Shown here piece by piece: positions 2,680-36,282 of a DNA stretch of 64,000 nt. Every line of letters begins with the position of its first letter. Within the stretch, counting starts at the first letter, position 1. The notes beneath the pieces are model-generated. The model had not been told where the DNA came from and did no database searches. It worked only from the letters and a program-made list of their open reading frames with translations. A program made the translations under genes and the position numbers. Source of the DNA: Planctomycetota bacterium (lineage in GTDB: Bacteria > Planctomycetota > UBA8108 > SXIK01); contig OZ244999.1 of assembly GCA_965223265.1 (NCBI GenBank), forward strand, positions 4,412,188 through 4,476,187, read 5' to 3'.

Positions 2680-3600
2680 TCATCCCACCGCCGGACCTGC
2701 CGAAGCCCACTGCCACTCGGGATGCGACGGCGCCGACTTGATGCCGCGAAACATGCGCACGAACTCGCGCCGGCGGACAAACCCGAGCTCCTGCAGCCTG
2801 GCAGTCCACTGCTGAGCGCGCTCGCCCGCTTCGAGGGCGTCGATCGCTACAGCCGTCCCCACATCGAGCCGCTGTAGCACATTTGCCAGCAGTGCTTCGG
2901 CGATCGCCGGCCCGGTCGCAACAATCGGTCCGACGTGTGCGTAGAGGGAACCAGGTCGCGCGCTGGCGTACCCTGTCACGGAAACGCATTCAGCGCAGGA
3001 GTTCACGCTCGCGTCGACGACGAAGCTCAGTTGCGGAGACTGCCGCGCCCATGCCTCGATGACATCGACTCTTGGTGCCCCGAAGGCATGGCGGTCGAGC
3101 TCGAACGCTGCCGGGGCGTCGGCATTCAAGTCGAAGCTCCGTACGGTGATCGAGCCAGCGAGGTGCGCTGATCGTTCTTGACACTCACTTGATACAGTCG
3201 CGACCCACCGTCCCAGCCTCACGTGATCATGAAATCCCAAAGTCTGATAAAGGCGCTGCCCCTCAGTCGTCGCATCGAGTCCGACGGTATGACACTCGCT
3301 GTCTAAGCTTTCCAGTGCTCGACCAAGGAGACGTCGACCGATGCCCTGCCGCCGCACACTTCGGTCAACAAGTACCATGCCGACCCAACCAACAGAGCCC
3401 GAATGGACCACCGTCGTCGTCGTGCCGACTCCAACGCCACCGACCTCGGCAACGAAACAGCCATGTGGACGGAAACGAAGAAAGTGGTGCCAGTCCGCAG
3501 CCGTTTGATTCCAACCGGCCTCCTCTTTGAGACGCATACCGAGCTCGACGTCCGTCGATTGCATGCGACGAATGTGCACCGAGTCAGCCACGTTGCCCAT
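2680..3600 (-). CDS. GNAT family N-acetyltransferase with C-terminal YitH-like acetyltransferase extension
   Basis: The acetyl-CoA binding motif VRRQGIGRRLLGRALE follows the HIRRM...VELGMRL beta1 region. Start chosen at Met167 of the long ORF (coordinate 3600), preceded by GGAG-N6. The upstream 160 codons of the ORF are Arg-rich and overlap the neighbouring oxidoreductase, so I treat them as not real. Confidence 0.7.
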   Translation of the reverse strand: MGNVADSVHIRRMQSTDVELGMRLKEEAGWNQTAADWHHFLRFRPHGCFVAEVGGVGVGTTTTVVHSGSVGWVGMVLVDRSVRRQGIGRRLLGRALESLDSECHTVGLDATTEGQRLYQTLGFHDHVRLGRWVATVSSECQERSAHLAGSITVRSFDLNADAPAAFELDRHAFGAPRVDVIEAWARQSPQLSFVVDASVNSCAECVSVTGYASARPGSLYAHVGPIVATGPAIAEALLANVLQRLDVGTAVAIDALEAGERAQQWTARLQELGFVRRREFVRMFRGIKSAPSHPEWQWASAGPAVG

Positions 3601-5215
3601 GCGCCGCTCCATCGTTGGAACCGCCCCACCACGGCAGTCGCTCCACATCGACGCCGAGGTCGTGAGCCACGACCCGCGCGGCATTGTAACCACCGAGTCC
3701 GGTGATGTTGCCTCCGGGATGCGTCGACCCACCGCACAAGTAGAGCGCGCGAATGGGGGTACGGTACGACCCTGCGCCCTCGAAGGGACGGTGAAAGCCG
3801 ATCTGTCCATCGGCGAACGACCCGACGAGGAGATCTCCCGCCTGCATGTTCGGAAGGCGCTCGTATGTCGCGGCGGGAGTGGCGTGAAACGATCCACGCA
3901 CCACACCTGGCTCTGCGAGGTTCGGCGCGTAGCTCGACCACATCTCCAGCAGCTCCGATGCGTGCGCACCTGCAACCTCCGACCATGTGGTGGATTCCCC
4001 CGAGAGGTCGAATGGCACCTTCTCCCACAAAAACGCCGTGTGCTTCCCCGGCGGCGCTTGCCCGCCATCAAAGCGAGTCGGTGTCGCTCCCCACGCAACT
4101 CTCATCGGAGGCCGCCGTCGCCCCTCGTGCGCGCGGACGATGGCGTCAAACTGTTCCAGGCTCTCGAGACCAAGAATCGTCATGAACGCATCATCAATCT
4201 CCGGCCGCCGCTCCACTGCGCGGTAGCGAGGCCGCTCATTGAGCGCGAGGTAAAGCCCAAAAAGCGGTGCGAGGACGTTGTAGCGAAACCCGCGCGCCTT
4301 CTCCTGAAGGCGGCGTGAGATCTCCGAAGTCGGCAATAAATCGACGAACGTCTGCTGCGGATTCAACCCGGAGGCGACAAACGCGTTGGCTCCGATCGTC
4401 TCGCCGCCGGCTAACTCGACGCCGACTGCTCGCTCGCCCTGCAGCAGAATCCGTTCGATCGTGACGTCGCAGCGAATCGCGCTACCGTGCGCCTCGATGG
4501 CGGCAACGAGCCCCTGCGCGAGGGCGTGAGAGCCGCCAACACACATCTGTGCCTTGTGCGGTGACGCCAACAGCGACGGAATCGAGTGGCCGAAACCCTT
4601 GAGACGTAAGTCGACCTCTCGCAGGCCATTGAAAAATAGGAGGCCCGCTCGAACGACATCGTTTTCGAATTCGCGCATGACGAATTCGAGCGGCGACCAG
4701 GCGCTAACCTCGAGCAAACGCCGACCCGCCGGCGTCGAGCTGAGGCGTGCCTGCCTCACCTCGGGTGGTAGCGGCGGCGCCTCTGACTCGGGCACGACGA
4801 GCTCGTCGACGATGGGTGCGAACTCGTCAATCCATTGCCGCAGCTTCCGCGCGTCGCGGCGTGAAAACTCAGCAAAGGAGGCTGCGGTTTTTTCGTTGTC
4901 GGTCCACCACTCGAGCGTGCGCCCGTCACGAAGAATCATCGCTACGTTGAGCTCAGGCTCAACGTAGCGGACACCGTAGTGCTCGAGTTCTAGATCACGA
5001 AACCACGGCTTCGAGGTGAGCGCACGATGAAAGAACGAATGAACGTTGTGGCGAAACCCCTCCAGACCGGGATGGGAATCCGTTGCCAATCCGCCGCCGA
5101 ACTCCGCTGCGCGCTCGAGGACGAGGCAGCGGAGCCCGGCACGCGCCAAATAGGCTGCCAGCACGAGCGTGTTGTGCCCACTTCCAAGCAGCAGTCCGTC
5201 ATAGGTGGTGTCCAT
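3584..5215 (-). CDS. FAD-dependent oxidoreductase, phytoene-desaturase (CrtI)-like family
   Basis: N-terminal dinucleotide-binding fold (YDGLLLGSGHNTLVLAAYLARAGLRCLVLE) and C-terminal GG-THPGGNITG motif typical of the amine-oxidase/CrtI superfamily. Confidence 0.8.
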   Translation of the reverse strand: MDTTYDGLLLGSGHNTLVLAAYLARAGLRCLVLERAAEFGGGLATDSHPGLEGFRHNVHSFFHRALTSKPWFRDLELEHYGVRYVEPELNVAMILRDGRTLEWWTDNEKTAASFAEFSRRDARKLRQWIDEFAPIVDELVVPESEAPPLPPEVRQARLSSTPAGRRLLEVSAWSPLEFVMREFENDVVRAGLLFFNGLREVDLRLKGFGHSIPSLLASPHKAQMCVGGSHALAQGLVAAIEAHGSAIRCDVTIERILLQGERAVGVELAGGETIGANAFVASGLNPQQTFVDLLPTSEISRRLQEKARGFRYNVLAPLFGLYLALNERPRYRAVERRPEIDDAFMTILGLESLEQFDAIVRAHEGRRRPPMRVAWGATPTRFDGGQAPPGKHTAFLWEKVPFDLSGESTTWSEVAGAHASELLEMWSSYAPNLAEPGVVRGSFHATPAATYERLPNMQAGDLLVGSFADGQIGFHRPFEGAGSYRTPIRALYLCGGSTHPGGNITGLGGYNAARVVAHDLGVDVERLPWWGGSNDGAAHGQRG

Positions 5216-5327: not shown

Positions 5328-8300
5328 TCAGCCTGTGGTCAGGCAACTGATTTCATGCAGGCGTGCCCCTGTGCAAATATCGAGGGCCAACTCGGCCATC
5401 GCAGGATGGCACGTGAAGAACAGGATCTGGTGGTCGCGTGCGAAGCGATCGAACGCCTCGAGCATGCCCCGAGCGCGCCCGGGATCAAAATTGACGAAGA
5501 CGTCGTCAAGGATAAGCGGCAAATGAACGCTCCGGGAGGAGTATTCCGCAACCAATCCGAGTCGAAGAGCAAGATAGAGCTGCTCGGCTGTGCCGCGACT
5601 GAGCTCGCTGGTCCGTTTGCGCTTACCATCGACGTCGACGAGGATGATGTCTTGTCCATCCGTCGCCTGTAGCACGCGGGTGTATCGCCCGTCGGTTGCT
5701 AGGCGGAGGATTTCCGACGCTGCCGCGAACACGTGCGGCTGTCGCTTGAGTTCGTATTCACGCATGGTGCGCGCGATTAAGGCTCGAGCCAGCGACGCCG
5801 TCTCGAAACGTCGAGTCGCTTGCTTCAACTCGTTCTCCAACCCGGCACGTCGCGTTCGGAGCGTATCCAAATCGGCGGACTGTTCCAGCTCTCGTCTCGC
5901 CGCTTCACTGTCCCGTGCGGCTCGGATGGCGTCGTCTCGCGATCGCTCGACAGACTCGAGTGCTAAGTCGATGCGTTCCGCTTCCGCCTTCCACCGTTCA
6001 AGGTCGCCGCACGGTAAATCACGCCGTACGACCGCAGCTGCCTCGCCGCATCCGAGTCTGCTCTCAAGCTGCCGCTCACAACCCTGAATCACCCGCTCAA
6101 GTTCTCGGCGTCTCTTGGCGCGGCGTAAACTCTCGCGCAATTCCACTTCATTGGTTGCACCGACTTCATCAAACAGCGCCGAGAGTTCCTGCCGCGTGCG
6201 TCGGCGCTCCTCTTCAACTGACTGCAGACGTGCCTGTCGACGACCGATCTCGGTTGCTAGCGCCTCCAGTCGCGCGCGGCGTTGATCGTCGGCCTCGAGT
6301 CGGTCCATAAACTCAAAAAGAAGGGTGACCGGGTCAGAGTTCCCAGACGCCATCTCAGCCTGTCGCCCGCTCTGATCAGGAGAGCTCGAAGTACTTGGCG
6401 CAGGGCCGGACGCCACATCGACGACCCCGCAGCTCTCAGATGCGTCGGCCAGAAGCGCGGCGACGCCGTGACGCCAATCGCTCACCAGCTTCTCTAGTCG
6501 CACAGCTTGCGCACGCTCTTCGGCTTTTCGCGTCCATAGCAGCCTCAATCGATCGAGCTCGGTAAAAAAGTCCTGCGCCGCTTCCAGCTCAAGGGTCTCT
6601 GGCATCCCATTTCGACGCTGCCACTCATCCCATGCGGCACGGTTCACGGTCTCACGTCGCTCCATCTCGTAGCACCGCTCCCTGATCACTTCGACCTCGC
6701 TGCGAATCGATTCAAGCTCGAGCTCAACAACCTCAAGCCGTTCACGGCATTCTTCCGCTGCGACAACAGCGCCATGAGCGTGTTGCAGACAACGTGCCAT
6801 CCCGTCGAGATCTTGTTCTTCCGGCTCGGAGGAGAGGCCCAGCCGAGTGGCGCACTCGCTGACCTTTTCATGCAGTGCCTCTTGGCAAGCCCGACTCTCC
6901 TCGAGCACGGCTGCGAAGTTCTTGCGTTCACGCTTGCGGCGGCGCAGAAGGACTCCTGCGCAGACTGCCGCAAGAAGCATCACGAGCACGCCACCAACGA
7001 TCATCGCGACGCCACCACGTGTCACGGCGAGTTCAGGGCTGACAAACCAAAACGCAACGACGAGCGAGAAGGCCGTGCCGAGGGCTAGCGCCGCTAACGC
7101 GGCGACAAGGATCACATCGCTCGGCACTGTGACACCCGACGACGCCGCCAGTGGTGATTCGTTCTTTACGGGTTCGCCCGTAGGGGACTCGACCTCCGCG
7201 CTCCCGGGGGCCGCTCCAAAGCTCGTCGCACTCCCACCGCGCGTGAGGAAAGCATATTTCGCCCGCTCGATTTTCAGCTCGTGCCACGCCCCCTGCAGGC
7301 GACCAAGAAGCTCCTCCTGCTCTGAAATCTCCTCTGGCGACGGTGCTTCGACCAGTCGGCGCTGCAAACGAGTGGCCTCAGTCTGAAGGCGTCTCTCTTC
7401 ACGTTCCGGCGCCTGAAGCGCCGCCTCCAGCTCGGCTCGCTGCGTGCGACAAGTCTTAGCGGCGGCCTGAAGCGCCGCCAGCTCGTCGCGGGCCGGAGTC
7501 TCGCCGGTGTCCAAAAAGTGCCGAAACGCCTCCGACCAGTTTCCCGTCGCCTCCATCCCGCTCTCAAGAGCAGACGTCGCCGCCCGAAGCCGTTGCCGCG
7601 TCGCACTCAGCTCCTCGGTGCGTTGGCGAAACGAGCCGACGTCGGCGTACAGCTCGTTCGCGCGCACGCGCCACCGAGCCGCCTCAGGCAAGACACCTGC
7701 CTCCAGCCGCAGACGCGAAGCGTCGTCTGTCTTCAACTCAGCCCGTAGCGTAGCGATCTGTGCCTTGAGCGACTCAGCATGCCCGGTGAGTGCGCTCAGC
7801 CGGCGCTCAACGTCGTCGTGGTCCAAAACTGTCTCAGGAAGCTCCTGCATCTCGACGCGAGCGGCGTTCGCCTCACACCAAAGTGGCCAGAGATCGATGA
7901 GCGCCTCGAATCGAGAACGCTCCGATCGCAGCCCCTCAGCCTCAGCGCGCAGCCCATGCACGCTCGCCTCATGGCGTGCCTGCGCGTCGACGAGATCGCC
8001 GTAGTTTTCCATGGCGGCGCGCGCACGCTGTTCTTCGCCGCGGCACGCAGCGTATTCGGTGGCGAGCTGGGAGAGCCGTCCGCTGGCGCCTCTCTGTTTC
8101 AGCAGCGAAGAGATTTCCTCATCCAGCTGCCGCCGCACCTGGCGAACGGCTCTACCCGCTCCTGCCATGCCGGCTGAAAAAATTCGATCTTTGACTCCTT
8201 GCTTCGAAAGCGATGCGAAATCCTGAAGCTCCGTGAGGCTGAACGCGAAGACCGACTTGAAGAGCGCGCGATCCATCCCCCCGACAAGCTGGGAGAGCTC

Positions 8301-8621
8301 GGCCTCACCCGCCTCACGGCCATCGTCGTACTGCAAAAACGCTTGCCGCTTGCCGCGGGCGCTGCGCTCGATCGTCAGCCCTTTGCCGTTCACCTCGACG
8401 AGGAGTCGTCCTCCGTGTTCGCCACCGCGAAGCGGAGGATAAAGGCGCTCACTACTGCGCCCATCAGGAAAGCCGAAGAGCACCCCACGAAGAAACGCCA
8501 GAAGCGTGCTCTTACCAGCTTCATTCGGCCCGAGAAAGACCGTCATTGCAGTGTCGAGTCCGTCGACGTGTTCGTCGCAAAAGAGACCGAACCCATCGAT
8601 ATGCCAGCCGCGGAGAATCAT
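5328..8621 (-). CDS. YhaN/SbcC-like AAA ATPase (Walker A GPNEAGKST) with long coiled coil and a central two-helix transmembrane hairpin
   Basis: N-terminal Walker A motif. C-terminal signature/Walker B/D-loop region (QLYLALRLGL...LPLILDDVFVNFD). Long Glu/Arg/Leu/Ala-rich coiled coil. Hydrophobic hairpin VILVAALAALALGTAFSLVVAFWFV...VAMIVGGVLVMLLAAVCAGVLL followed by RRRKRERK. The start ATG overlaps the stop of the upstream nuclease gene (ATGA). Confidence 0.8.
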   Translation of the reverse strand: MILRGWHIDGFGLFCDEHVDGLDTAMTVFLGPNEAGKSTLLAFLRGVLFGFPDGRSSERLYPPLRGGEHGGRLLVEVNGKGLTIERSARGKRQAFLQYDDGREAGEAELSQLVGGMDRALFKSVFAFSLTELQDFASLSKQGVKDRIFSAGMAGAGRAVRQVRRQLDEEISSLLKQRGASGRLSQLATEYAACRGEEQRARAAMENYGDLVDAQARHEASVHGLRAEAEGLRSERSRFEALIDLWPLWCEANAARVEMQELPETVLDHDDVERRLSALTGHAESLKAQIATLRAELKTDDASRLRLEAGVLPEAARWRVRANELYADVGSFRQRTEELSATRQRLRAATSALESGMEATGNWSEAFRHFLDTGETPARDELAALQAAAKTCRTQRAELEAALQAPEREERRLQTEATRLQRRLVEAPSPEEISEQEELLGRLQGAWHELKIERAKYAFLTRGGSATSFGAAPGSAEVESPTGEPVKNESPLAASSGVTVPSDVILVAALAALALGTAFSLVVAFWFVSPELAVTRGGVAMIVGGVLVMLLAAVCAGVLLRRRKRERKNFAAVLEESRACQEALHEKVSECATRLGLSSEPEEQDLDGMARCLQHAHGAVVAAEECRERLEVVELELESIRSEVEVIRERCYEMERRETVNRAAWDEWQRRNGMPETLELEAAQDFFTELDRLRLLWTRKAEERAQAVRLEKLVSDWRHGVAALLADASESCGVVDVASGPAPSTSSSPDQSGRQAEMASGNSDPVTLLFEFMDRLEADDQRRARLEALATEIGRRQARLQSVEEERRRTRQELSALFDEVGATNEVELRESLRRAKRRRELERVIQGCERQLESRLGCGEAAAVVRRDLPCGDLERWKAEAERIDLALESVERSRDDAIRAARDSEAARRELEQSADLDTLRTRRAGLENELKQATRRFETASLARALIARTMREYELKRQPHVFAAASEILRLATDGRYTRVLQATDGQDIILVDVDGKRKRTSELSRGTAEQLYLALRLGLVAEYSSRSVHLPLILDDVFVNFDPGRARGMLEAFDRFARDHQILFFTCHPAMAELALDICTGARLHEISCLTTG

Positions 8622-9892
8622 TCGTCGTCGAGTGTCTCCTTGAGTCGATCGATGGCCTCCTCGGCAGCCACGCGCACGAGCGTTTCTGCTGCTTCACCGT
8701 GCCTCTCAGCGGACCACTGTGAGAGAGCGCGCCGCGCTAGAAGCGCCGTCGACTCGTCCATGAACGTCTCAAGATCTGGCGGTGCCTCGCACAACTCATT
8801 CGTAAGCCGAAGTAACTGCGACAGAAAATCGTCACGGCGCAGTAGCTCGGCGTCGTCCAAACGGCGTCCGGTCAGGGCTTTGACGCTCTCCCACCACAGA
8901 AGAGGCTGCTGCGATTCACACTCAGCGCGCAGCTCTGTGAGCAGGCCTTCAAGCACACCAACTCGCTTCAGGTCACGATGCAGCGGCCCGCGCCCGTAGA
9001 GCACGCAACGCACAACGAGTCCTCTGCCGTCTTCCTCCGACTGGCGCTGGCAGGCAGCGGCGTACAATTCGTCGCGGAGCTCGCGAATGTCGTTGACGCC
9101 CTCGATCGGTACGTTCAACTCGACAAACCGCAAGACGTCGAGCGCCTCGAAGGAGACTCGAGCGACTCTATCGTCTTCGACTTCGACGACGACCGCCCCC
9201 TTCGCACCAAGCTCACTCGGCTTGGGGGACCGGCCTTGGAGTGCTCCGGGGTAGATGATCCAAGGATCCCCTTTGCTGACTTGCGTGTACTGGTGGATAT
9301 GTCCAAGAGCCCAGTAATCATACCCGGTGGCTGCAAGATCGGAGACCTCGCAAGGGCTGTACGGCTCGTGTCCGTCGCCGCTACCGACGCTGCAGTGCAG
9401 CACCCCTATGGATAGACCTGGCTCGCCTCGGAGCTGGAATCGCCGCGCCAAGTTCTCGCGCACCGCGGCGGCACCGAAACTGATTCCACAGACGCTCGCG
9501 AGACGCACGCCGTCCTTCACGACTGGGACGCACTCGACGTGCGAGGCACCGAATGTATGCACGCTCTCTGGCCACCGACATGTTCCCCTTCGGCCATCGA
9601 GCGGATCATGGTTGCCGTGCGCGATCAACGTTTGAACTCCCGCTCGATCGAGACGCTCAAGCCCGCGGGCAAACCTCAATTGCGCTCGTATGCTCGCCTC
9701 TGTGCTGTCGAACACGTCGCCCGCAATGACCAAAAATGCTGCCTCACGCTGAAGCGTGAACGCCACCAGCGCGTCGAAAGCAGCAAGCGATGCATCGCGC
9801 AGCTCTGCCGCCACTCGTGGCGAGCTCCTCGCCACGCCCGTAAACGGACTGCCAAGGTGGAAGTCTGCTGCATGCACAAACGAGAATCGCAT
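8618..9892 (-). CDS. YhaO/SbcD-like calcineurin-family metallophosphoesterase (DNA repair exonuclease)
   Basis: MRFSFVHAADFHLGSP metallophosphatase motif I, GDVFD and GNHD motifs. Start at 9892 is preceded by GGAG, so the annotated longer ORF to 10093 is an over-extension. Translationally coupled to the downstream ATPase. Confidence 0.8.
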   Translation of the reverse strand: MRFSFVHAADFHLGSPFTGVARSSPRVAAELRDASLAAFDALVAFTLQREAAFLVIAGDVFDSTEASIRAQLRFARGLERLDRAGVQTLIAHGNHDPLDGRRGTCRWPESVHTFGASHVECVPVVKDGVRLASVCGISFGAAAVRENLARRFQLRGEPGLSIGVLHCSVGSGDGHEPYSPCEVSDLAATGYDYWALGHIHQYTQVSKGDPWIIYPGALQGRSPKPSELGAKGAVVVEVEDDRVARVSFEALDVLRFVELNVPIEGVNDIRELRDELYAAACQRQSEEDGRGLVVRCVLYGRGPLHRDLKRVGVLEGLLTELRAECESQQPLLWWESVKALTGRRLDDAELLRRDDFLSQLLRLTNELCEAPPDLETFMDESTALLARRALSQWSAERHGEAAETLVRVAAEEAIDRLKETLDDE

Positions 9893-10117
9893 TCTTCTCC
9901 ACTCCCTTCGCACGCCAATAACGCGCGGTGTCGGCAAGGACGCTCTCTCGCATCCTCTTGTCGATCGCTCAGTCACCGTCGCAAGGGTGCCTACCGCGAT
10001 GCGCAAGTCGACGATGTGCGTCGGGTCGAGTCGCGAGGCGCGGCACCGCCAGTGTCGCGCCTCGCGCGCGGCAGCGCAAGGGGCAAACCACACACTCCGC
10101 GCCGGCCCAGGACGTCG

Positions 10118-10900
10118 TCACAGTCGCGAGCGAGTTCGTATCAAGTCTATGGCCGTCTCGTGCACGACGCTATCCGCAGGCGTCGTCTGTGCGATGATCT
10201 GGAGCTCCGCGACGGGTGGCAGAGATGCTGGCCCAAGCTCCTCCAGAAGCTGTAGCGACAACGTTCGACTGAGGAGATCCAAGTCTTGCCGCAGGACGCA
10301 TTCCCGCAGAACTGCCCGCGCTCGCTCGGGGTCAATGCGAGCCAGTGCGGCGAGAGCTCGGTGACGAACGAGATGGAATGCGTCGGCCCGAATCGCTCGT
10401 TCGACACCCGCGGACGACGACCTGGCTGCGGCCCCGATCTCGCCGAGTGTCCCGGCCGCCCAGTACCGCGTCGCCGGATCGCCTGAAATCAACGCCTCGG
10501 AGAGCGCATCGACAGCGGCATCACCGTACGCAGTCAATTCTCGCGACGCCGACGGCGCAGTGTCACGCCGAAAACGATCAATCAAGTAGGGAATGGCCCG
10601 CCGCGAACGTCGCTCGGCGAGTGAATCCACCACAGCCTCGCGATGATCACCGACCGGGATACACAACAGCATGGCATCGACTCCACCCCGGCAGAGAGCG
10701 AGTGCTCGGCCACTACTGAGTAAAAGCGCGCCGAGAAGGCTCGCGGAGATGAGGAACACACCGGCGACTAGGAGTGTCGCTGGTCGCAGCGAACGCACTC
10801 GCGCCGACGCCGGGCTGCTATTGTGTGGATCAATCAACGTCGCCCCCCGCTTCAAGAGGAGAGCGCTATCGGCTACCCGGCGAACGAGCCTGAAAGTCAC
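10118..10900 (-). CDS. HEAT/PBS-lyase repeat protein, N-terminal signal/TM helix
   Basis: N-terminal hydrophobic helix (LLVAGVFLISASLLGALLL) followed by repeated helical A/L/R-rich units reminiscent of HEAT_2 repeats. No catalytic motif. Confidence 0.5.
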   Translation of the reverse strand: MTFRLVRRVADSALLLKRGATLIDPHNSSPASARVRSLRPATLLVAGVFLISASLLGALLLSSGRALALCRGGVDAMLLCIPVGDHREAVVDSLAERRSRRAIPYLIDRFRRDTAPSASRELTAYGDAAVDALSEALISGDPATRYWAAGTLGEIGAAARSSSAGVERAIRADAFHLVRHRALAALARIDPERARAVLRECVLRQDLDLLSRTLSLQLLEELGPASLPPVAELQIIAQTTPADSVVHETAIDLIRTRSRL

Positions 10901-11138: not shown

Positions 11139-14100
11139 TCAGTTGCTGAACGTGATGAAGTTATCACTCATCGACAGATGCTGCGCCGCAATCCAGGCAG
11201 CCGAGCGCGTCACACCTGAGATGCGCACTTCGTCGAGAAGGCCGAGGAAATATGCCGTAGAGCCTGCGACTCGGCCGATATTGAGCGGCTGAGGGTTGGC
11301 GACGAGCGGCGACAGCGTCGAGTCTGCTGTCACGTCCACTCCATCGAGATAGACACGGCCCGTGCCGCCGTCGACTGACGTAGCAACGTAGTACCAAGTG
11401 TCCGATGAGAGGGTCAGGCCAGTGGCGCGAAGGTAGTTCGTTCCGCTGCCGAGCGACGTGACACGGCCTGAGCTCTGATGCACTTCAAGGTTGTAACCAA
11501 ATGAATCGTTCCAGACGTTCTTCTTCGAGACGATCCGCGGCGGATGCCCGGACTGCCCCGCCGCCAAACTGAACCAAGCCTCGATCGACAGCTGACCGGT
11601 GACCTCCAAACTGGGGCTCGTGCCGGCGTCAATAAAGTCGTCGACGCCGTCGAAGGAGCGAGCTGCACCGATCTGACCTGCCCCGGCGGTGCTGCCGCTG
11701 TTGACGCCATCGTTAATGTTCGCCGTCGAGTCTTGCAGGTCGGAGTTGAGATGCCAGACGGCATTGTAGCCTGCCGTCCAAACGCCGGCGGCGTCCTGGC
11801 CATCCGGTGCAACAGGATTATCATAGTAGAGCATGATGTAATCCACGCTCGAAACTGCGTCGATTTGGGGTACTCTCACCCATACGTAGGACGTCCCGGT
11901 TGGATCCCATGTGTCGATTTCGTGTGACAACACAGTGGTCCCGTCGTCATCGATGAAGCGAAGATCTTCACCAGCGGCCTGGATTGCGGCGTAGTCGAGC
12001 TTCGTCGCATCCAGCGTCACCAGAACCGGGAAGTCCACCAGGTTCTCCGCCTGCGCCGCGTTGTTGAACGTCAACTGACGGCGCTGACCCCACGACGCAT
12101 CCCACCAGCCAATGTTGCTCACCGTGATCGTCGTCGTCGCGCTGTCTGTGTCGCCGTCGTCGTCCGTCACCGTCAACGTCGCAAGGTACGTCCCCGCAGA
12201 GGCATACTCGTGCGTCGTCGTCACACCTGTGTCACCTTGAGTGTCGCCAAAGTCCCATGAGTACGACACAATCGTGCCGTCCGTGTCGCTCGAGCCAGAA
12301 GCGTCAAAGCTCACCAAAAGCGGCTCCAGACCCGACTCCGGAGTCGCTGTGAACGACGCCGTCGGAGGATCGTTCGGCACAGGAAGAACCGTCAGCACAG
12401 CATCCGCGCTCGTCACGCTCCCAAAAGCGTTACTCACCTCGACGCTGTAAAATCCCCCGTCATCCGCGAGCGTCAACACCGGCGTCGTGTATGAGCTGCT
12501 GGTCGCACCGGCGATCGGTACACTGTTCAAAAGCCACTGATACGACAGCGGCGCTGTTCCGCTCGCCACCACGTCGAACGTCGCGGTCTCCCCTTCGAAA
12601 ACCGACTGACTCTGCGGGTCCTGCGTGATGCTCGGCGGCGACGGCGCCGCGTCCACCGTGATCGACACCGCGGCCGACGTCTCGCTCACACCACCGTCGT
12701 TCGTCGCCACGGCCGTCAGGCTGTGCGTCCCTACAGGAACACCATTCCAGACGTACTCGTACGGGGCCGTTGTGTCGCTGCCAAGAAGGCCACCATCGGC
12801 ATAAAAGTCCACCTGGTCCACTGTGCCTTCAGGGTCCGAAGCCGTCGCTTCGATCGTCACATTCACTGGCTCAACGTACGACGTACCATCCGCCGGTGAC
12901 GTGATGCTCACCGTCGGCGGTGGACGACCGCCGCCCTCCCCGACGCCGTACGTCAGCATCCCGTCGCTCATCGACTGGTGCTGCGCCGCAATCCACGCCG
13001 CCGAGCGCGTCACGCTCGAGATCCGCACTTCGTCGAGAACCCCCAGAAAGTACGCCGTCGAGCCGGCCACCCGGCCGATGTTTAGTGGCTGGGGATTCGC
13101 CACCAGCGACGACATCGTCGAGTCCGTCGTCACGTCCACGCCATCGAGGTACACCTGGCCCGATGTGCCGCTCGCTGACGTCGCTACGTAGTGCCACGTG
13201 TCCGTGCCAAGCACCACCCCGCTGGCGCGCAGCGAGTCCGAGCCGCTGCCCAGGGACGTGATGCGTCCTGAGCTCTGCTGCACCTCGAGGTTGTAACCGA
13301 ACGGGTCGTTCCAGACGTTCTTCTTCGAAACGATCCGCGGCGGATGGCCTGATTGACCCGGCGCCAGGCGGATCCATGCCTCGATCGACAGCTGGCCTGT
13401 GATCTCAAGGCTGGCGCTCGTCCCCGCGTCGATGAAGTCGTCCACTCCATCAAACGTGCGGGCGCCGCCGATGCGTCCGGCGCCGGGCGCGGTGCCGTTG
13501 TCGACACCGTCGTTGGCGTTCGACGTCGAGTCCTGTGTGCCATCGAGGTGCCACACGCCTGCGTAACCGGCACTCCACACCCCCGCGGCGTCCTGGCCGT
13601 CAGGCGCCGAACCGTTGTCGTAGTAGAGCATCATGTAGTCAGTCGTCGAGCTCGCGTCGATCTGCGGCACCTTCACCCACACGTGCGACGTGCCCGCCGG
13701 GTCCCACGACTCGATCTCGTGCGACAGCACCGTGAAGCTATCCGCGTCAATAAACCGCAGGTCTTCACCTTGCGCTTGCGTCAGCGAATAGTCGATCCGC
13801 GTCGCATCCAGCGTCACCAGCACCGGGAAGTCCACCAAGTTCTCCGCCTGCGCAGCGTTGTTGAACGTCAACTGACGGCGCTGACCCCACGACGCATCCC
13901 ACCAGCCTATGTTGCTCACCGTGATCGTCGTCGTCGTGCTGTCTGTGTCGCCGTCGTCGTCCGTCACCGTCAACGTCGCAAGGTACGTCCCCGCAGAGGC
14001 ATACTCGTGCGTCGTCGTCACACCTGTGTCACCTTGAGTGTCGCCAAAGTCCCATGAGTACGACACAATCGTGCCGTCCGTGTCGCTCGAGCCAGAAGCG

Positions 14101-17100
14101 TCAAAGCTCACCAAAAGCGGCTCCAGACCCGACTCCGGAGTCGCTGTGAACGACGCCGTCGGAGGATCGTTCGGCACAGGAAGAACCGTCAGCACAGCAT
14201 CCGCGCTCGTCACGCTCCCAAAAGCGTTACTCACCTCGACGCTGTAAAATCCCCCGTCATCCGCGAGCGTCAACACCGGCGTCGTGTATGAGCTGCTGGT
14301 CGCACCGCCGATCGGTACACTGTTCAATAGCCACTGATACGACAGCGGCGCTGTTCCGCTCGCCACCACGTCGAACGTCGCGGTCTCCCCTTCGAAAACC
14401 GACTGGCTCTGCGGGTCCTGCGTGATGCTCGGCGGCGACGGCGCCGCGTCCACCGTGATCGACACCGCAGCCGACGTCTCGCTCACACCGCCGTCGTTCG
14501 TCGCCACCGCCGTCAGGCTGTGTGTCCCTACAGGAACACCATTCCAGACGTACTCGTAAGGGCTCGTTGTGTCGCTGCCAAGAAGGCCACCATCGGCATA
14601 AAAGTCCACCTGGTCCACGGTGCCTTCAGGGTCTGAAGCCGTCGCTTCGATCGTCACATTCACTGGCTCAACGTACAAAGTCCCATCCGCCGGTGACGTG
14701 ATGCTCACAGTCGGCGGTGGACGACCGCCGCCCTCCCCGACGCCGTACGTCAGCATCCCGTCGCTCATCGACTGGTGCTGCGCTGCAATCCACGCCGCCG
14801 AGCGCGTCACGCTCGAGATGCGCACTTCGTCGAGAACCCCGAGAAAATATGCCGTCGAGCCGGCCACCCGGCCGATATTGAGCGGCTGGGGATTCGCCAC
14901 CAGCGACGACATCGTCGAGTCCGTCGTCACGTCCACGCCGTCGAGGTACACCTGGCCCGTTGTGCCGCTCGCTGACGTCGCTATGTAGTGCCACGTGTCC
15001 GTGCCAAGCACTACACCGTCGGCGCGCAGCGAGTCCGAACCGCTGCCCAGAGACGTGATGCGGCTATTGCTCTGCTGCACCTCGAGGTTGTAACCAAACG
15101 GGTCATTCCAGACGTTCTTCTTCGAGACGATCCGCGGTGGATGCCCGGACTGCCCAGGCGCAAGGCGGATCCAAGCCTCGATCGAAAGCTGGCCCGTGAT
15201 CTCCAAACTCGCACTTGTCCCCGCGTCGATGAAGTCGTCCACTCCATCAAACGAGCGGGCGCTGCCGATGCGTCCAGCGCTCGGCGCTGTGCCGTTGTCG
15301 ACACCGTCGTTGGCGTTCGACGTCGAGTCCTGTGTGCCATCGAGGTGCCACACGCCTGCGTAACCGGCACTCCACACCCCCGCGGCGTCCTGGCCGTCAG
15401 GGGCCGAAGCGTTGTCGTAGTAGAGCATCATGTAGTCAGTCGTCGAGCTCGCGTCGATCTGCGGCACCTTCACCCACACGTGCGACGTGCCCGCCGGGTC
15501 CCACGACTCGATCTCGTGCGACAGTACTGTAAAACCGTCCGCATCGATGAACCGAATGTCTTCGCCTTGCGCTTGCGTCAGCGAATAGTCGATCCGCGTC
15601 GCATCCAGCGTCACCAGCACCGGGAAGTCCACCAAGTTCTCCGCCTGCGCAGCGTTGTTGAACGTCAACTGACGGCGCTGACCCCACGACGCATCCCACC
15701 AGCCTATGTTGCTCACCGTGATCGTCGTCGTCGTGCTGTCTGTGTCGCCGTCGTCGTCCGTCACCGTCAGCGTCGCAAGGTACGTCCCCGCAGAGGCATA
15801 CTCGTGCGTCGTCGTCACGCCTGTGTCACCTTGAGTGTCGCCAAAGTCCCATGAGTACGACACAATCGTGCCGTCCGTGTCGCTCGAGCCAGAGGCGTCA
15901 AAGCTCACCAAAAGCGGCTCCAGACCCGACTCCGGAGTCGCTGTGAACGACGCCGTCGGAGGATCGTTCGGCACCGGAAGAACCGTCAGCACAGCATCCG
16001 CGCTCGTCACGCTCCCAAAAGCGTTACTCACCTCGACGCTGTAAAATCCCCCGTCGTCCGCGAGCGTCAACACCGGCGTCGTGTATGAGCTGCTGGTCGC
16101 ACCGCCGATCGGTACACTGTTCAATAGCCACTGATACGACAGCGGCGCTGTTCCGCTCGCCACCACGTCGAACGTCGCGGTCTCCCCTTCGAAAACCGAC
16201 TGGCTCTGCGGGTCCTGCGTGATGCTCGGCGGCGACGGCGCCGCGTCCACCGTGATCGACACCGCGGCCGACGTCTCGCTCACACCGCCGTCGTTCGTCG
16301 CCACCGCCGTCAGGCTGTGTGTCCCTACAGGAACACCATTCCAGACGTACTCGTAAGGGCTCGTTGTGTCGCTGCCAAGAAGGCCACCATCGGCATAAAA
16401 GTCCACCTGGTCCACGGTGCCTTCAGGGTCTGAAGCCGTCGCTTCGATCGTCACATTCACTGGCTCAACGTACAAAGTCCCATCCGCCGGTGACGTGATG
16501 CTCACAGTCGGCGGTGGACGACCGCCGCCCTCCCCGACGCCGTACGTCAGCATCCCGTCGCTCATCGACTGGTGCTGCGCTGCAATCCACGCCGCCGAGC
16601 GCGTCACGCTCGAGATGCGCACTTCGTCGAGAACCCCGAGAAAATATGCCGTCGAGCCGGCCACCCGGCCGATATTGAGCGGCTGGGGATTCGCCACCAG
16701 CGACGACATCGTCGAGTCCGTCGTCACGTCCACGCCGTCGAGGTACACCTGGCCCGTTGTGCCGCTCGCTGACGTCGCTATGTAGTGCCACGTGTCCGTG
16801 CCAAGCACTACACCGTCGGCGCGCAGCGAGTCCGAACCGCTGCCCAGAGACGTGATGCGGCTATTGCTCTGCTGCACCTCGAGGTTGTAACCAAACGGGT
16901 CATTCCAGACGTTCTTCTTCGAGACGATCCGCGGTGGATGCCCGGACTGCCCAGGCGCAAGGCGGATCCAAGCCTCGATCGAAAGCTGGCCCGTGATCTC
17001 CAAACTCGCACTTGTCCCCGCGTCGATGAAGTCGTCCACTCCATCAAACGAGCGGGCGCTGCCGATGCGTCCAGCGCTCGGCGCTGTGCCGTTGTCGACA

Positions 17101-20100
17101 CCGTCGTTAGCGTTCGACGTCGAGTCCTGAAAGTCGTCAAGGTGCCACACGCCTGCGTAACCGGCACTCCACACCCCCGCTGCGTCCTGGCCGTCAGGTG
17201 CCGAAGCGTTGTCGTAGTAGAGCATCATGTGGTCAGTCGTCGAACCCGCGTCGATCTGCGGCACCTTCACCCACACGTGCGACGTGCCCGCCGGGTCCCA
17301 CGACTCGATCTCGTGCGACAGCACTGTAAAACCGTCCGCATCGATGAACCGCAGATCCTCACCTTGCGCTTGCGTCAGCGAATAGTCGATCCGCGTCGCA
17401 TCCAGCGTCACCAGTACCGGGAAGTTCACCAGGTTCTCCGCCTGCGCCGCGTTGTTGAACGTCAAGCGATGCCGGCGTGACCAGCTGAGATCCCACCACG
17501 ATCCGTTGACCGTGATGGTGTCGCTGATGGAGTCGGTGAATCCGTCGTTGTCAGTGACCGTCAGCGTGGCGGTGAAATCACCCACGGACGTGTACTCGTG
17601 AGAGGTCGTGACACCGGTGTCGACGCCGCCGTCGCCGAAGGTCCAATCGTAGCTCACGATGGTGCCGTCGGTGTCAAAGGACCCTGACGCGTCGAACTGC
17701 ACGGTGAGCGGGATCTCCCCCGAGGTTGGGGTGGCGGTGAACGCCGCCGTCGGGGGTTGACCGGAACCACTCACGACGCTGACCATGACGGAGTCGACAT
17801 CGACATGCCCCAGGTCGTTGATCACTTCAAGGAGTATCTCGTGATCGCCGACAGCGAGAGAGACCTGCGGCGACACGCCCGTCGCCAGCACAGTGCTGTC
17901 CGGCAGCAGCCATGTATAAGAGGAGATGACCGCACCTGGGTCGTTGCTCGCGGACGCATCGAGAGTCACCAACTCGAACCCGTCCTCATCCGTATCCGTC
18001 ACCATCTGATCGGCACCCGCGTCCGCAACGAGCGTTGAGCCGCAGTCGGGCAACACGCGGACATGCGTCGTGGTCGAGAGCCCTGCAGCATCTGAGACGG
18101 TGAGAAAGATGCGATAGAAGTAAATGTTGCCGTCGCATCCGGCGGGCGAAATGACCGTGCTAGTGCTGCAGTTCGGGTCAACGGGATCGCGGTGATCGTG
18201 GTCGTTGTGGATAAGGAAAGTTTGCCACGCACAGGTCAGTTCGCCTTGGCTGTGCTCCGCGTCCGAAATCGTCGCCGTCAAACTGAACGGGGTGTCACCG
18301 GCCATGGAATAGAGAGTGCCGTCGACTGGACTATCAATCGTGACACTGGGCGGCGTGTTGTTGAGCGAAATCACGACGGTCGCTGTATCGGTTGCACCCC
18401 CCGAATCGGTCACGGTCAAAACGACATCGAACTGGGTCGGCACCCCAGGCGATGCGGTGAACTGATGGGACGGGTCTGCCTGGGTGCTGATCGGGCTGCC
18501 GTCGCCGAAATCCCACTCGTAGGTCACAGCACCTTCGGGATCAGACGAGTTGCTGCCGGTGAACTGGACCGTCAAAGGTGTGGGGCCGTAGAAAACGTCT
18601 GCTGAGGCAACTGCGGTCGGGTTTTGATTACCGCCGGGTGCGTACGCCACCTCGAAGATCTGGTCAGTATTCCAATCGACGTAGTAGAGCCCGCCGGTCT
18701 GGGGATGCGTCGCGATGTAGACGATCGAACGGGCAGCGCTCGAGTCGAGAAAATCCCTGACTTCTACCGGCTGATCGCTGCCGTCGAAGACGAAGTTACG
18801 GATCCACCTGCCAGAGTAGTCGGCGTGGAAGTAAGTGTCTTTGTACTGCGCTGGGAAATCGTCGGCCGTGTACCACACACCGCCGATCGCCGAATTGCCG
18901 CCGAACTGCGGCCCGGCCACGGGCGAGCCGGCTGCACCGATGTTGATGACGTCGGCGTCGAGTCCATCGTAGATCCCGGTCCGTGATGGGCCGCTCCCAT
19001 GACGCCAGTCAATGGCGGGACGCGTATGGAGAAAAACCTCGACGCTGCCTGGAATGGCCTGCGCTGGATCACAGGGGTTGGGAAAGAACGGGTTAGGATC
19101 TAACGTGTCCTGCTGAATGAGGTCGTTGAAATAGAAAAACTCTTGCGTACAGCCACCGACACCGAAAAGCGGATTGGGAGCATCTTCGTTCGGGACGTCA
19201 CGCGAAAAGTAGCCGCTATGGACCGTCAACCCCTCAAACGCCGGCCAGCCAAAATTCTGTCCCGGAGCAGTGGCAACGTGAAGATCTTCCCAGATCTGCC
19301 AGCCGACATCGCCGATGTAGATCGAACCTGGGTTTCCATCTGATGGGGTGTGAGATCCTGAATTCGGCCGCAGCGCAATGCGACAAGGATTTCTCAGCCC
19401 AAGCGACCAGACCCGGGAACGCGCCGAGCGCGGCGCCGCGGCCTCCCAAAATGGATTGCTCGGCAACCCGTCACCAGTGTCTGGATCGAGACGGACGATC
19501 TTGCCGCTGAGCGAACTCAGCATCTGCGACCGATACGCGCCCACGTTCTCGTCTGGGCGGATGATCCCGTCCGCTAACCCGTCGACGTAGTAAGTCTCGG
19601 AAGCACTGCCTGTATCGGTCGACGAGTAGCTGGCACCGTCGCCGCACGAAGCGATCAGCGTGCCATCGGTTCCAAAGATCAGTCCACCAACGCCGTGAGA
19701 TTGGTGCAGAATCGGAAAACCGGTGCTCGCTGTCTCCCCGAGAAGGACCAAGCGGCTGTTCGGATCGATCGCCGTCGCATGCCCGAAATCGTCATCGCCA
19801 GGGGGTTTGATCGCAGTGTAACGGGTGATTCGCCCAATCGTCGCGGCGAAATACTCGTTTTGCGCCGGGTTGTAGCTCGGCGTACCAGCGTGCAGCAGAT
19901 GATGCCGATCGACGACGTAGAGCAGGTAGACATGACCGTTGAGGTGATAGTTGGGGTGGAGGGCGAAACCGAGGAGACCGTAGTCACGCCAACCTCCGAC
20001 CTCGTCGTTGATGTCGATGAATGGAGTCGCCAATTTGACTCCGTTCTCAACGATCCAGACGCGTCCGCCGCGCTCCCAGACAAAGACTCGATTCTCGTGA

Positions 20101-20246
20101 TCCTGCGGGTCGAACGTCAGCCCTATGACCTCGTTCCACCCACTGCCGACGGTGGTCTCGACGAAGTCAGGAGGAAGCGCCCACAAAGAGACCGGAAGAC
20201 AGAAAGCCAGCGCTAGATGGATCCCTACGTTCGCTCGTCTTGGCAT
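11139..20246 (-). CDS. Giant secreted multidomain protein (3035 aa): signal peptide, PQQ-dependent sugar dehydrogenase-like beta-propeller, PKD/Ig domains, then four DUF2341-LamG modules (three followed by Big-Ig(I-set)-PKD)
   Basis: N-terminal signal peptide (HLALAFCLPVSLWALP). GSDH-like propeller region. PKD signatures (WDFGDG...Y..L.VTD). Repeated WWD.SW..R..LTFNN (DUF2341) followed by LamG_3-like FDGVDDFIDAG...LSIEAW. Ig I-set-like and bacterial Ig-like segments. A single uninterrupted ORF of 9108 nt. Confidence 0.85.
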   Translation of the reverse strand: MPRRANVGIHLALAFCLPVSLWALPPDFVETTVGSGWNEVIGLTFDPQDHENRVFVWERGGRVWIVENGVKLATPFIDINDEVGGWRDYGLLGFALHPNYHLNGHVYLLYVVDRHHLLHAGTPSYNPAQNEYFAATIGRITRYTAIKPPGDDDFGHATAIDPNSRLVLLGETASTGFPILHQSHGVGGLIFGTDGTLIASCGDGASYSSTDTGSASETYYVDGLADGIIRPDENVGAYRSQMLSSLSGKIVRLDPDTGDGLPSNPFWEAAAPRSARSRVWSLGLRNPCRIALRPNSGSHTPSDGNPGSIYIGDVGWQIWEDLHVATAPGQNFGWPAFEGLTVHSGYFSRDVPNEDAPNPLFGVGGCTQEFFYFNDLIQQDTLDPNPFFPNPCDPAQAIPGSVEVFLHTRPAIDWRHGSGPSRTGIYDGLDADVINIGAAGSPVAGPQFGGNSAIGGVWYTADDFPAQYKDTYFHADYSGRWIRNFVFDGSDQPVEVRDFLDSSAARSIVYIATHPQTGGLYYVDWNTDQIFEVAYAPGGNQNPTAVASADVFYGPTPLTVQFTGSNSSDPEGAVTYEWDFGDGSPISTQADPSHQFTASPGVPTQFDVVLTVTDSGGATDTATVVISLNNTPPSVTIDSPVDGTLYSMAGDTPFSLTATISDAEHSQGELTCAWQTFLIHNDHDHRDPVDPNCSTSTVISPAGCDGNIYFYRIFLTVSDAAGLSTTTHVRVLPDCGSTLVADAGADQMVTDTDEDGFELVTLDASASNDPGAVISSYTWLLPDSTVLATGVSPQVSLAVGDHEILLEVINDLGHVDVDSVMVSVVSGSGQPPTAAFTATPTSGEIPLTVQFDASGSFDTDGTIVSYDWTFGDGGVDTGVTTSHEYTSVGDFTATLTVTDNDGFTDSISDTITVNGSWWDLSWSRRHRLTFNNAAQAENLVNFPVLVTLDATRIDYSLTQAQGEDLRFIDADGFTVLSHEIESWDPAGTSHVWVKVPQIDAGSTTDHMMLYYDNASAPDGQDAAGVWSAGYAGVWHLDDFQDSTSNANDGVDNGTAPSAGRIGSARSFDGVDDFIDAGTSASLEITGQLSIEAWIRLAPGQSGHPPRIVSKKNVWNDPFGYNLEVQQSNSRITSLGSGSDSLRADGVVLGTDTWHYIATSASGTTGQVYLDGVDVTTDSTMSSLVANPQPLNIGRVAGSTAYFLGVLDEVRISSVTRSAAWIAAQHQSMSDGMLTYGVGEGGGRPPPTVSITSPADGTLYVEPVNVTIEATASDPEGTVDQVDFYADGGLLGSDTTSPYEYVWNGVPVGTHSLTAVATNDGGVSETSAAVSITVDAAPSPPSITQDPQSQSVFEGETATFDVVASGTAPLSYQWLLNSVPIGGATSSSYTTPVLTLADDGGFYSVEVSNAFGSVTSADAVLTVLPVPNDPPTASFTATPESGLEPLLVSFDASGSSDTDGTIVSYSWDFGDTQGDTGVTTTHEYASAGTYLATLTVTDDDGDTDSTTTTITVSNIGWWDASWGQRRQLTFNNAAQAENLVDFPVLVTLDATRIDYSLTQAQGEDIRFIDADGFTVLSHEIESWDPAGTSHVWVKVPQIDASSTTDYMMLYYDNASAPDGQDAAGVWSAGYAGVWHLDGTQDSTSNANDGVDNGTAPSAGRIGSARSFDGVDDFIDAGTSASLEITGQLSIEAWIRLAPGQSGHPPRIVSKKNVWNDPFGYNLEVQQSNSRITSLGSGSDSLRADGVVLGTDTWHYIATSASGTTGQVYLDGVDVTTDSTMSSLVANPQPLNIGRVAGSTAYFLGVLDEVRISSVTRSAAWIAAQHQSMSDGMLTYGVGEGGGRPPPTVSITSPADGTLYVEPVNVTIEATASDPEGTVDQVDFYADGGLLGSDTTSPYEYVWNGVPVGTHSLTAVATNDGGVSETSAAVSITVDAAPSPPSITQDPQSQSVFEGETATFDVVASGTAPLSYQWLLNSVPIGGATSSSYTTPVLTLADDGGFYSVEVSNAFGSVTSADAVLTVLPVPNDPPTASFTATPESGLEPLLVSFDASGSSDTDGTIVSYSWDFGDTQGDTGVTTTHEYASAGTYLATLTVTDDDGDTDSTTTTITVSNIGWWDASWGQRRQLTFNNAAQAENLVDFPVLVTLDATRIDYSLTQAQGEDLRFIDADSFTVLSHEIESWDPAGTSHVWVKVPQIDASSTTDYMMLYYDNGSAPDGQDAAGVWSAGYAGVWHLDGTQDSTSNANDGVDNGTAPGAGRIGGARTFDGVDDFIDAGTSASLEITGQLSIEAWIRLAPGQSGHPPRIVSKKNVWNDPFGYNLEVQQSSGRITSLGSGSDSLRASGVVLGTDTWHYVATSASGTSGQVYLDGVDVTTDSTMSSLVANPQPLNIGRVAGSTAYFLGVLDEVRISSVTRSAAWIAAQHQSMSDGMLTYGVGEGGGRPPPTVSITSPADGTSYVEPVNVTIEATASDPEGTVDQVDFYADGGLLGSDTTAPYEYVWNGVPVGTHSLTAVATNDGGVSETSAAVSITVDAAPSPPSITQDPQSQSVFEGETATFDVVASGTAPLSYQWLLNSVPIAGATSSSYTTPVLTLADDGGFYSVEVSNAFGSVTSADAVLTVLPVPNDPPTASFTATPESGLEPLLVSFDASGSSDTDGTIVSYSWDFGDTQGDTGVTTTHEYASAGTYLATLTVTDDDGDTDSATTTITVSNIGWWDASWGQRRQLTFNNAAQAENLVDFPVLVTLDATKLDYAAIQAAGEDLRFIDDDGTTVLSHEIDTWDPTGTSYVWVRVPQIDAVSSVDYIMLYYDNPVAPDGQDAAGVWTAGYNAVWHLNSDLQDSTANINDGVNSGSTAGAGQIGAARSFDGVDDFIDAGTSPSLEVTGQLSIEAWFSLAAGQSGHPPRIVSKKNVWNDSFGYNLEVHQSSGRVTSLGSGTNYLRATGLTLSSDTWYYVATSVDGGTGRVYLDGVDVTADSTLSPLVANPQPLNIGRVAGSTAYFLGLLDEVRISGVTRSAAWIAAQHLSMSDNFITFSN
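11990..17480. repeat. Three near-identical in-frame tandem copies of a 1797-bp (599-codon) unit inside the giant gene; a fourth, diverged copy of the DUF2341-LamG part lies at 11139..~12100
   Basis: Six-frame ORF markers recur exactly every 1797 bp (12241/14038/15835; 12823/14620/16417; 13184/15011/16808). Direct alignment of 11941-12245 with 13741-14045 shows near identity from ~12030 onward. Encoded protein copies differ only by scattered substitutions. Confidence 0.9.
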
Positions 20247-20356
20247 GCGCTTTCCCTACGTTGACAAAAAGCAAGCGGAAAACTGGAGCGCGGCCGTATT
20301 TAAGGCATAAAACTAGCCCAGTTGCCCTGATCTCCGCCGTTCGATTGAAGCACCCG

Positions 20357-20383
20357 CTAGATTGTTCCTAGAGATTGTTCTAG
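20357..20383. promoter_or_regulatory. Direct repeat CTAGATTGTTC CTAGAGATTGTTCTAG in the 5' region of the giant gene (candidate operator)
   Basis: Two copies of AGATTGTTC, 6 bp apart and flanked by CTAG, lie ~110-135 bp upstream of the giant gene ATG (20246, minus strand), within a locally AT-richer 317-bp intergenic region. Confidence 0.3.
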
Positions 20384-20563
20384 TCGAGTGTCGCCCACCC
20401 GCCGGCCGAATGCAAGCTTAACATTATCGGGCTACCCCAACGGCCAGAGCACGCGAGGCACTCCCCCCAAACAACGGCCAGAACGGTCTTGATCGCACCG
20501 TTTTCGGATGCGCGCAATCGCCGGCGCATCACGCCGCGCTCCACCGGCACCCGCGGCGCACCT

Positions 20564-30352: not shown

Positions 30353-30800
30353 GTGTACTACCTCCCCGTGCTCCGGACGGCACCCAGCCCACTAGAACCG
30401 GCAGTCGAAGCCGCGTCAATGTCCTGCGACCGGGAAATTCGCGTGCCAAGGGCAAAGTGGGGCGAACGGGTGAGCGCGCCGTCGACGAGCCCGGCCTTAA
30501 CCCGTAAACTGGATCTTTTCCCTATCCCAGCTCTCCCGCCCTCAAGTGCCCAATACCCCTGCGGCCTACACCCAGGGTATCGGCTTTCAGGATCGGGGGG
30601 ATTTTGGGTGCGAACGGCTGTTTCCACCTGTTCCAGCAACCCAGGAGCCCCCAAGCGGGGTGTCAACAAGTTAGGCACCCCTCGAGCCGGGACCCCTCTC
30701 CTAAACTCCCTTGCCCCCCAAGAGGAACGCACCCGCCCGGTCGACGCTCTCGCATGGCCGTGGTCGGCTCGCATCTCTCAGATCTCAGGAGTCAATCTGT

Positions 30801-36225: not shown

Positions 36226-36282
36226 GACTGCGTCAGCCTCATTCTACGAAGACGGCAGGTTTTTGATTTTCTGTTCAGCGAC

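Follow-up and report, generated by a model that had tools for sequence, protein, structure and literature searches.

The stretch analyzed here, 64,000 nucleotides of contig OZ244999.1 (positions 4,412,188 to 4,476,187 of the forward strand) from a Planctomycetota bacterium and referred to below as the window, raises the question of what is done by one giant protein encoded at 11139..20246. The list of open reading frames (ORFs) and its translation place there, on the minus strand, an ORF of 9108 nucleotides with an ATG start, which encodes 3035 amino acids plus the stop codon. A first-pass annotation had correctly reported a single 9.1-kb ORF of 3035 amino acids, to which only the minus strand has to be added, and had read the product as a pure adhesin or surface fiber. 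The comparisons described below brought us, with about even confidence, to another answer: a secreted protein that combines a constant, enzyme-like head with a multivalent, lectin-like tail.

When the whole protein was used as the query, matching proteins of 1.7-3.4 thousand residues were aligned only to about the first 24% of it. BLASTP aligned 118 of the 119 top homologues over ~715 residues (query residues 24-735) at 46-62% identity, and this part, hereafter the head, was N-terminal in nearly all of them. Named sources of the head were Bacteroidota (Rhodocytophaga, including R. rosea, Hymenobacter, Pontibacter, and Chryseolinea), Verrucomicrobiae, Gammaproteobacteria (Ferrimonas and Steroidobacteraceae), and metagenome-assembled genomes (MAGs) of Verrucomicrobiae and Bacteroidia, while the only match among the GTDB representatives scanned was a Spirosoma MAG locus, 46% identical. 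An alignment of 110 heads revealed ~80 positions conserved at 97% or more. The tails of the homologues, however, were mutually unrelated, comprising LamG, PA14, malectin, F5/8-C (discoidin), cadherin-like, VCBS, fn3, and proprotein-convertase P domains, and in many homologues the tail included a sorting domain of the type IX secretion system (T9SS). The N-terminal head of ~715 residues, and not the repeats, is the most conserved and probably the decisive part of the protein. Conservation of the head alongside differing tails favors an enzyme-like head whose targeting tail can be exchanged over the adhesin or fiber proposed at first.

Most of the head is a propeller (aa 24-540; 18627..20177; all features of the gene lie on the minus strand) of the six-bladed GSDH or pyrroloquinoline quinone (PQQ)-sugar-dehydrogenase type. 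The GSDH assignment made in the first-pass annotation holds as a family match: PF07995 scored 61.9 bits over aa 51-339 when the full-length protein was searched and 71.2 bits when the search was confined to the propeller, the cut-off being 25. Its extent is restricted, since insertions of ~200 aa in the propeller limit the match to profile positions 12-226 of 332. For comparison with the PDB, a propeller-only profile was used, as a profile of full-length homologues was swamped by PKD matches. The fold proved to be six-bladed and of the type of soluble glucose dehydrogenase (sGDH). Related structures gave values of 37.1 for 2ISM (Thermus thermophilus TTHA0570), 36.5 for 7CDY, 29.7 for sGDH 1C9U, 28.2 for Hedgehog-interacting protein (HHIP), 25.8 for the Trichoderma reesei AA12 structure 6I1T, and 25.0 for the AA12 enzyme CcPDH (6JT5).

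Within the propeller, H184, in the motif HxGGxxxFGxDGxL, was found in 108 of the 110 heads and aligned with 'LHSGG' of 2ISM, and R285 and N286 were kept in 108 and 99 heads, respectively. The sGDH equivalents of these residues are the catalytic His144 and the pair Arg228/Asn229, which contacts the PQQ quinone. The family motif 'GLRNP' aligned with 'GHRNP' of 2ISM, whereas HHIP has 'GLHDP' at this place. Because the Arg-Asn pair is kept here and lost in HHIP, the head is closer to the enzymes than to this non-catalytic relative. Further conserved residues were K249/R252, N264-P265, and N331-G-W-P (to P335). A Lys or Arg was also conserved at position 483 and is a candidate equivalent of the basic residues by which the C-terminal blades of the enzymes bind the PQQ carboxylates; blades 5-6 gave no sequence alignment to the PDB.

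The propeller is followed by a PKD domain (aa 545-630; 18357..18614), identified by Pfam and by alignments to ColH PKD domains and conserved in the homologues, and then by an Ig-like domain (aa 631-735; 18042..18356). The latter gave only a weak Big_7 match (E 0.004), was modeled as a beta-sandwich, and is described by no Pfam or NCBIfam model. In this domain a triad, H680-x-x-H683-x-H685 (window positions 18192-18209), was invariant in all 110 heads, with D662, W674, and the pair C704...C735 conserved beside it. The HxxHxH triad looks like a metal site, and the two cysteines could form a disulfide. One homologue of 3043 aa (P0096), in which the head is fused to PA14 and to a complete three-domain multicopper oxidase (aa 2023-2405), hints at a redox function of the head. 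CopC and 3-keto-disaccharide-hydrolase matches in the homologues were cross-hits with no independent stretch of their own and were not used.

Behind the head, two PKD-type spacers (aa 736-825 and 826-916; 17499..18041) lead to four modules. Modules 1 (aa 917-1515; 15702..17498), 2 (aa 1516-2114; 13905..15701), and 3 (aa 2115-2713; 12108..13904) each consist of DUF2341, LamG_3, Big_7, an Ig (I-set) domain, and PKD, and module 4 (aa 2714-3035; 11142..12107), which consists of DUF2341 and LamG_3 only, is the C-terminal end of the protein. Searches with Pfam-A recovered, above curated cut-offs, every family that had been predicted: in addition to PF07995, four copies of DUF2341 (PF10102, 176 bits), four of Laminin_G_3 (PF13385, 255 bits), five of PKD (PF00801/PF18911), three of Big_7, and three of I-set/Ig_3. 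A sixth PKD-like domain, the spacer at aa 736-825 between head and modules, stayed below the threshold. Weak matches to Nudix_hydro, NS3 helicase, and DUF4828 in the giant protein were likewise cross-hits lacking an independent stretch and were ignored.

The unit formed by DUF2341 and LamG_3 was then characterized. A search with the C-terminal 326 aa found 264 proteins from many phyla, mostly stand-alone DUF2341+LamG_3 proteins of 340-560 aa; most of the best 120 of these 264 showed 30-50% identity at 95-100% query coverage, and the nearest DUF2341 halves came from Planctomycetota and Chloroflexota. An AlphaFold2 model built from 99 sequences, in which a beta-sandwich of ~110 aa is followed by a jelly roll, reached a predicted local distance difference test score of 96 and a predicted template-modeling score of 0.93, and the unit is on these grounds regarded as one rigid body. 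A profile of the unit was searched against 1.84 billion cluster representatives, of which 69,541 matched at E ≤ 1e-30, with up to 21 matched stretches in the best ones. Full units, counted with a hidden Markov model (HMM) of our own, numbered at least four in 83 of the best 150 array proteins, with a maximum of 20, and four in the giant protein; Pfam found 4-6 DUF2341+LamG_3 pairs in five of these array proteins. Such numbers do not support the earlier statement that DUF2341 usually occurs singly beside MotA/ExbB.

The combination of the propeller with DUF2341-LamG units, which had been called unusual, also has precedents. Among the head-bearing homologues, three units were counted in P0007, two each in P0003, P0034, and P0064, and one full plus one partial unit in P0002; many others carry 2-4 LamG-only units, which often end the protein exactly as here. 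Head and tail thus both recur in many giant bacterial proteins, as emerged when the co-occurrence proposed in the first-pass annotation was checked in relatives. The head-bearing proteins with variable tails go under annotations such as PQQ-dependent sugar dehydrogenase, PKD domain-containing, LamG-like jellyroll, or DUF2341 domain-containing protein. Within this unstudied family the giant protein is large but rather ordinary, precedented in its parts and in their combination. Only the pairing of the head with at least three full DUF2341-LamG units is uncommon, being found in two of the 150 array proteins, the giant protein and P0007.

The N-terminus, MPRRANVGIHLALAFCLPVSLWA followed by LPP, has a basic n-region and a 17-residue hydrophobic core and reads as a Sec signal peptide, in agreement with the first-pass annotation; the predicted peptide would cover aa 1-23 (20178..20246), and the alignments of the homologues begin at aa ~24. 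The 'LAFC' of the N-terminus is, as read from the sequence, not a canonical lipobox. At the other end, the last LamG strand (...SMSDNFITFSN) closes the protein, and nothing hydrophobic follows or precedes it as a C-terminal stretch. Neither LPXTG, PEP-CTERM, nor a C-terminal transmembrane helix was recognized by reading the sequence, with no dedicated predictor used, and the T9SS domain Por_Secre_tail (PF18962) was absent from the Pfam matches of the giant protein; the lack of a recognizable C-terminal anchor had already been pointed out. In the consensus of the stand-alone DUF2341-LamG proteins, from a first alignment that was since discarded, a Cys occurred ~17 residues past the start Met, which suggests that many of them are lipoproteins, unlike the giant protein.

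The analysis itself establishes the domain make-up, the folds, the pattern of conservation, the recurrence of head and tail in other proteins, and the absence of partner genes; export, cofactor use, catalysis, glycan ligand, and localization we infer from these features as follows. The giant protein would be a Sec-exported, self-contained extracellular protein built on a plan of constant head and exchangeable tail, with the propeller, PKD, and three-His Ig-like domains forming one conserved functional unit. This head would bind a sugar and, like fungal AA12 enzymes and the aldose dehydrogenases of the periplasm, oxidize it with PQQ/Ca2+. In the tail, the four rigid DUF2341-LamG units, spaced by Big_7, I-set, and PKD domains, would form a multivalent, lectin-like array and hold the head to a glycan polymer, which could be a polysaccharide of the environment or a glycan on a cell surface. 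We also counted in favor of this proposal that the gene is isolated in a housekeeping neighborhood and that its homologues have no conserved neighbors.

Several points weigh against an enzyme-like head on a lectin-like tail. The head family is backed by biochemistry in none of its members, is covered by no NCBIfam model, and was the subject of no paper that was found. The GSDH match, ending at profile position 226 of 332, leaves the C-terminal PQQ contacts unmapped. No PQQ biosynthesis genes lie within the 64-kb window, and the giant protein has no cytochrome or obvious electron acceptor; Escherichia coli, for comparison, scavenges its PQQ. The catalytic His is also kept in HHIP, and retention of the motif alone is therefore no proof of catalysis. 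Furthermore, the HxxHxH domain has no assigned role, and neither a function nor a ligand has been assigned to the DUF2341 half.

HHIP is also the model for the best-surviving alternative, in which the propeller is a non-catalytic, ligand-binding head and the whole protein is an adhesin or surface fiber that attaches to surfaces, prey, or cells. We regard this as possible but doubtful. The head is 46-62% identical across several phyla, and the near-invariant positions include the Arg-Asn pair that HHIP lost; adhesin tips, however, normally diversify, and a conserved head fits an enzyme better. Moreover, it is the tails that vary and not the head, and the protein carries no cell anchor.

The Pfam description of DUF2341 and its published contexts led us to consider whether the protein assists a motor of the MotA/TolQ/ExbB type or a type IV pilus system. 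The domain is found appended N-terminally to MotA-like 'GIT' A subunits (PMC12505986) and occurs in large proteins of archaeal type IV pilus loci (PMC4858521); a DUF2341 gene of the Methanococcus maripaludis epd pilus locus was one of the transposon hits when transformation-defective mutants were screened for (PMC10133366). DUF2341 is also present in giant Patescibacteria proteins (PMC11809585). In addition, some stand-alone homologues are labeled ExbB by the Joint Genome Institute (JGI). In the window, however, ~40 ORFs scanned with Pfam (from those of at least 150 aa) contained no MotA/ExbB, pilus or pilin, secretin, or cytochrome domain, and Pfam found no MotA_ExbB domain in the giant protein, which also has no class III or prepilin signal. 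The loci of P0007 and P0012 have no ExbB/TolQ or pilus neighbors, and P0160, a stand-alone homologue labeled ExbB by JGI, has neither a MotA domain nor an ExbB neighbor. These findings make the motor or pilus role very improbable. The JGI gene named 'biopolymer transport protein ExbB' (6001-7182 in the metagenome contigs L002 and L003, 4172-5353 in L004) was seen to encode DUF2341-LamG with no MotA_ExbB and no ExbB/TolQ neighbor, and its label looks like an annotation carry-over.

The repeats themselves were compared directly, since their period of 1797 nucleotides, or 599 aa, exceeds the limit of Tandem Repeats Finder and left that program blind to them. Four DUF2341-LamG repeats, three of them with the additional Big_7, Ig, and PKD domains, were confirmed as the first-pass annotation had described them, with a likeness between modules far beyond chance and full modules starting at aa 917, 1516, and 2115. 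Modules 1-3 were pairwise 96-98% identical in protein and 94-98% in DNA (module 2 versus 1, 98% at the protein level; module 3 versus 1 and 2, 96-97.5%), and module 4 was 75-78% identical in protein to the matching part of modules 1-3. The three full copies differ at 43-111 positions, mostly synonymous and in a mosaic pattern, with a ratio of nonsynonymous to synonymous substitution rates (dN/dS) of 0.11-0.24, and their Ig/PKD half is almost identical. Within 12108-17498, copies 1 and 2 were seen to differ mainly in the first 390 nucleotides, and copies 2 and 3 mainly in nucleotides 138-1394. The blockwise distribution of the module differences suggests gene-conversion tracts. Together with their mostly synonymous nature and the low dN/dS, it indicates that the four units arose by amplification within the gene, with their similarity kept by ongoing gene conversion under purifying selection. 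That the copy number or the ORF is partly an assembly artifact of near-identical 1.8-kb repeats, or a decaying remnant, is suggested by the high identity of the three copies and by the fact that the exact protein (P0001) is known from one 9.18-Mb contig only, with no independent assembly, but is highly unlikely, as the frame is open over all 9108 nucleotides, collapsed or chimeric repeats would not give such a mosaic, mostly synonymous pattern, the contig is probably from long reads, and relatives carry 2-20 units.

Roles beyond those named above were given only a slight probability. A bolder form of the proposal, which we consider unlikely, is that the head represents a large, cross-phylum, uncharacterized family of extracellular glycan oxidoreductases, which would be to bacteria what AA12 is to fungi. 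In that case a dedicated metal or electron-transfer site would be provided by the three-His domain, the tails would set the substrate, and DUF2341-LamG would be a new type of carbohydrate-binding module (CBM), here in a fourfold array.

The surroundings of the gene are otherwise of a housekeeping kind, comprising thrS, carB, pyrF, ribD, a MiaB/RimO-type enzyme, ubiB, sucCD, dapA, and glmM, together with an SbcCD-like pair and a GldG-type ABC system; no rRNA, tRNA, or Rfam matches were found in the window. The nearest named relatives of the CarB encoded here were all in Planctomycetota MAGs, at 71-80% identity, in agreement with the phylum of the host. A conserved operon partner (cytochrome, TonB receptor, or ExbB) was rejected, as none occurred in four homologue contexts. 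The G+C content of the gene matches its surroundings, at about 60-64%. Upstream lies an intergenic region of 317 nucleotides (20247..20563, minus strand, read from the sequence), which probably holds the gene's own promoter; a promoter and terminator scan found no sigma-70-like site in it, a result that is uninformative for Planctomycetota. Directly downstream and on the same strand, 5328-10900 encodes a HEAT-repeat protein, a calcineurin-like phosphoesterase, and a 1097-aa SbcC/AAA_27-type ATPase; no functional link of this SbcCD-like pair to the giant gene is apparent. Further along the minus strand, the longest ORFs called at 2680-5215, one for a GNAT acetyltransferase (2680-4098) and one for an FAD/NAD oxidoreductase (3584-5215), overlap by ~500 nucleotides, and the GNAT start probably lies further downstream than the listed TTG.

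On the other side of the gene, an ORF of 1088 aa at 30711-33977 (plus strand; its TTG start is uncertain), with Big_5 Ig-like domains and FG-GAP repeats, may encode another extracellular protein. The GldG-type cluster at 34939-40535 (minus strand) consists of an ABC ATPase, an ABC-2 permease, ABC_transp_aux/DUF7088, and DUF4340. The G+C content rises to 66-67% at 40001-44000, compared with ~60-62% elsewhere, which coincides with a 776-aa TPR protein (41013-43343, minus strand) at which many overlapping spurious ORFs were called.

The wider value of the locus lies in a highly conserved, unstudied head with PQQ-dehydrogenase hallmarks that is fused across phyla to varied glycan-binding tails, and in the rigid DUF2341-LamG unit, from which arrays of as many as 20 copies are made. 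Should the head prove catalytic, its bearers would make up a class of extracellular sugar oxidoreductases widespread among bacteria, with a bearing on polysaccharide turnover and possibly on redox chemistry of the lytic polysaccharide monooxygenase type, and DUF2341-LamG would gain a role as a targeting module. Of all the leads, the conserved head and its HxxHxH site most deserve pursuit.

Among known systems, the jelly roll of the tail unit is comparable to domain 4 of the GH43 arabinanase AbnA of Geobacillus stearothermophilus (5HON), in which crystallography located an arabino-oligosaccharide and which was proposed as a new CBM (PMC9110388), and to the lectin-like jelly rolls of CBM40 and the neurotoxin HCN; pentraxins and LamG/LNS domains belong to the same set of comparisons. 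In contrast to AbnA domain 4, CBM40, and HCN, the jelly roll of the giant protein is rigidly joined to an N-terminal DUF2341 beta-sandwich. Compared with the proteins that share its head and have variable tails (P0002-P0120), the giant protein has the most full units, four, among the head-bearers seen, and it differs from many Bacteroidota head-bearers in its Planctomycetota origin and in having no T9SS C-terminal domain.

Compared with the GSDH enzymes (2ISM; Escherichia coli YliI/Asd, 2G8S; and Acinetobacter calcoaceticus sGDH, 1C9U), the giant protein adds the propeller insertions of ~200 aa, is similar in sequence only over the first two-thirds of the Pfam profile, and has its propeller fused to PKD, to the three-His Ig-like domain, and to a tail of 2300 aa. 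The CAZy family AA12 (Coprinopsis cinerea CcPDH, 6JT5; T. reesei, 6I1T) showed 15-19% identity to it in structural alignment, and Pfam found in the giant protein neither the AA8 cytochrome nor the CBM1 of the CcPDH type; the likeness to AA12 is one of analogous function and not of membership. Teredinibacter turnerae has secreted proteins that combine GSDH with CBMs (TERTU_2567) and were compared there with AA12 CcPDH (PMC12055684). The giant protein has no classical CBM family and would be targeted by its DUF2341-LamG units. By analogy, it would share its design logic with PQQ dehydrogenases that are tethered by CBMs, such as CcPDH of AA12 and the GSDH+CBM proteins of T. turnerae.

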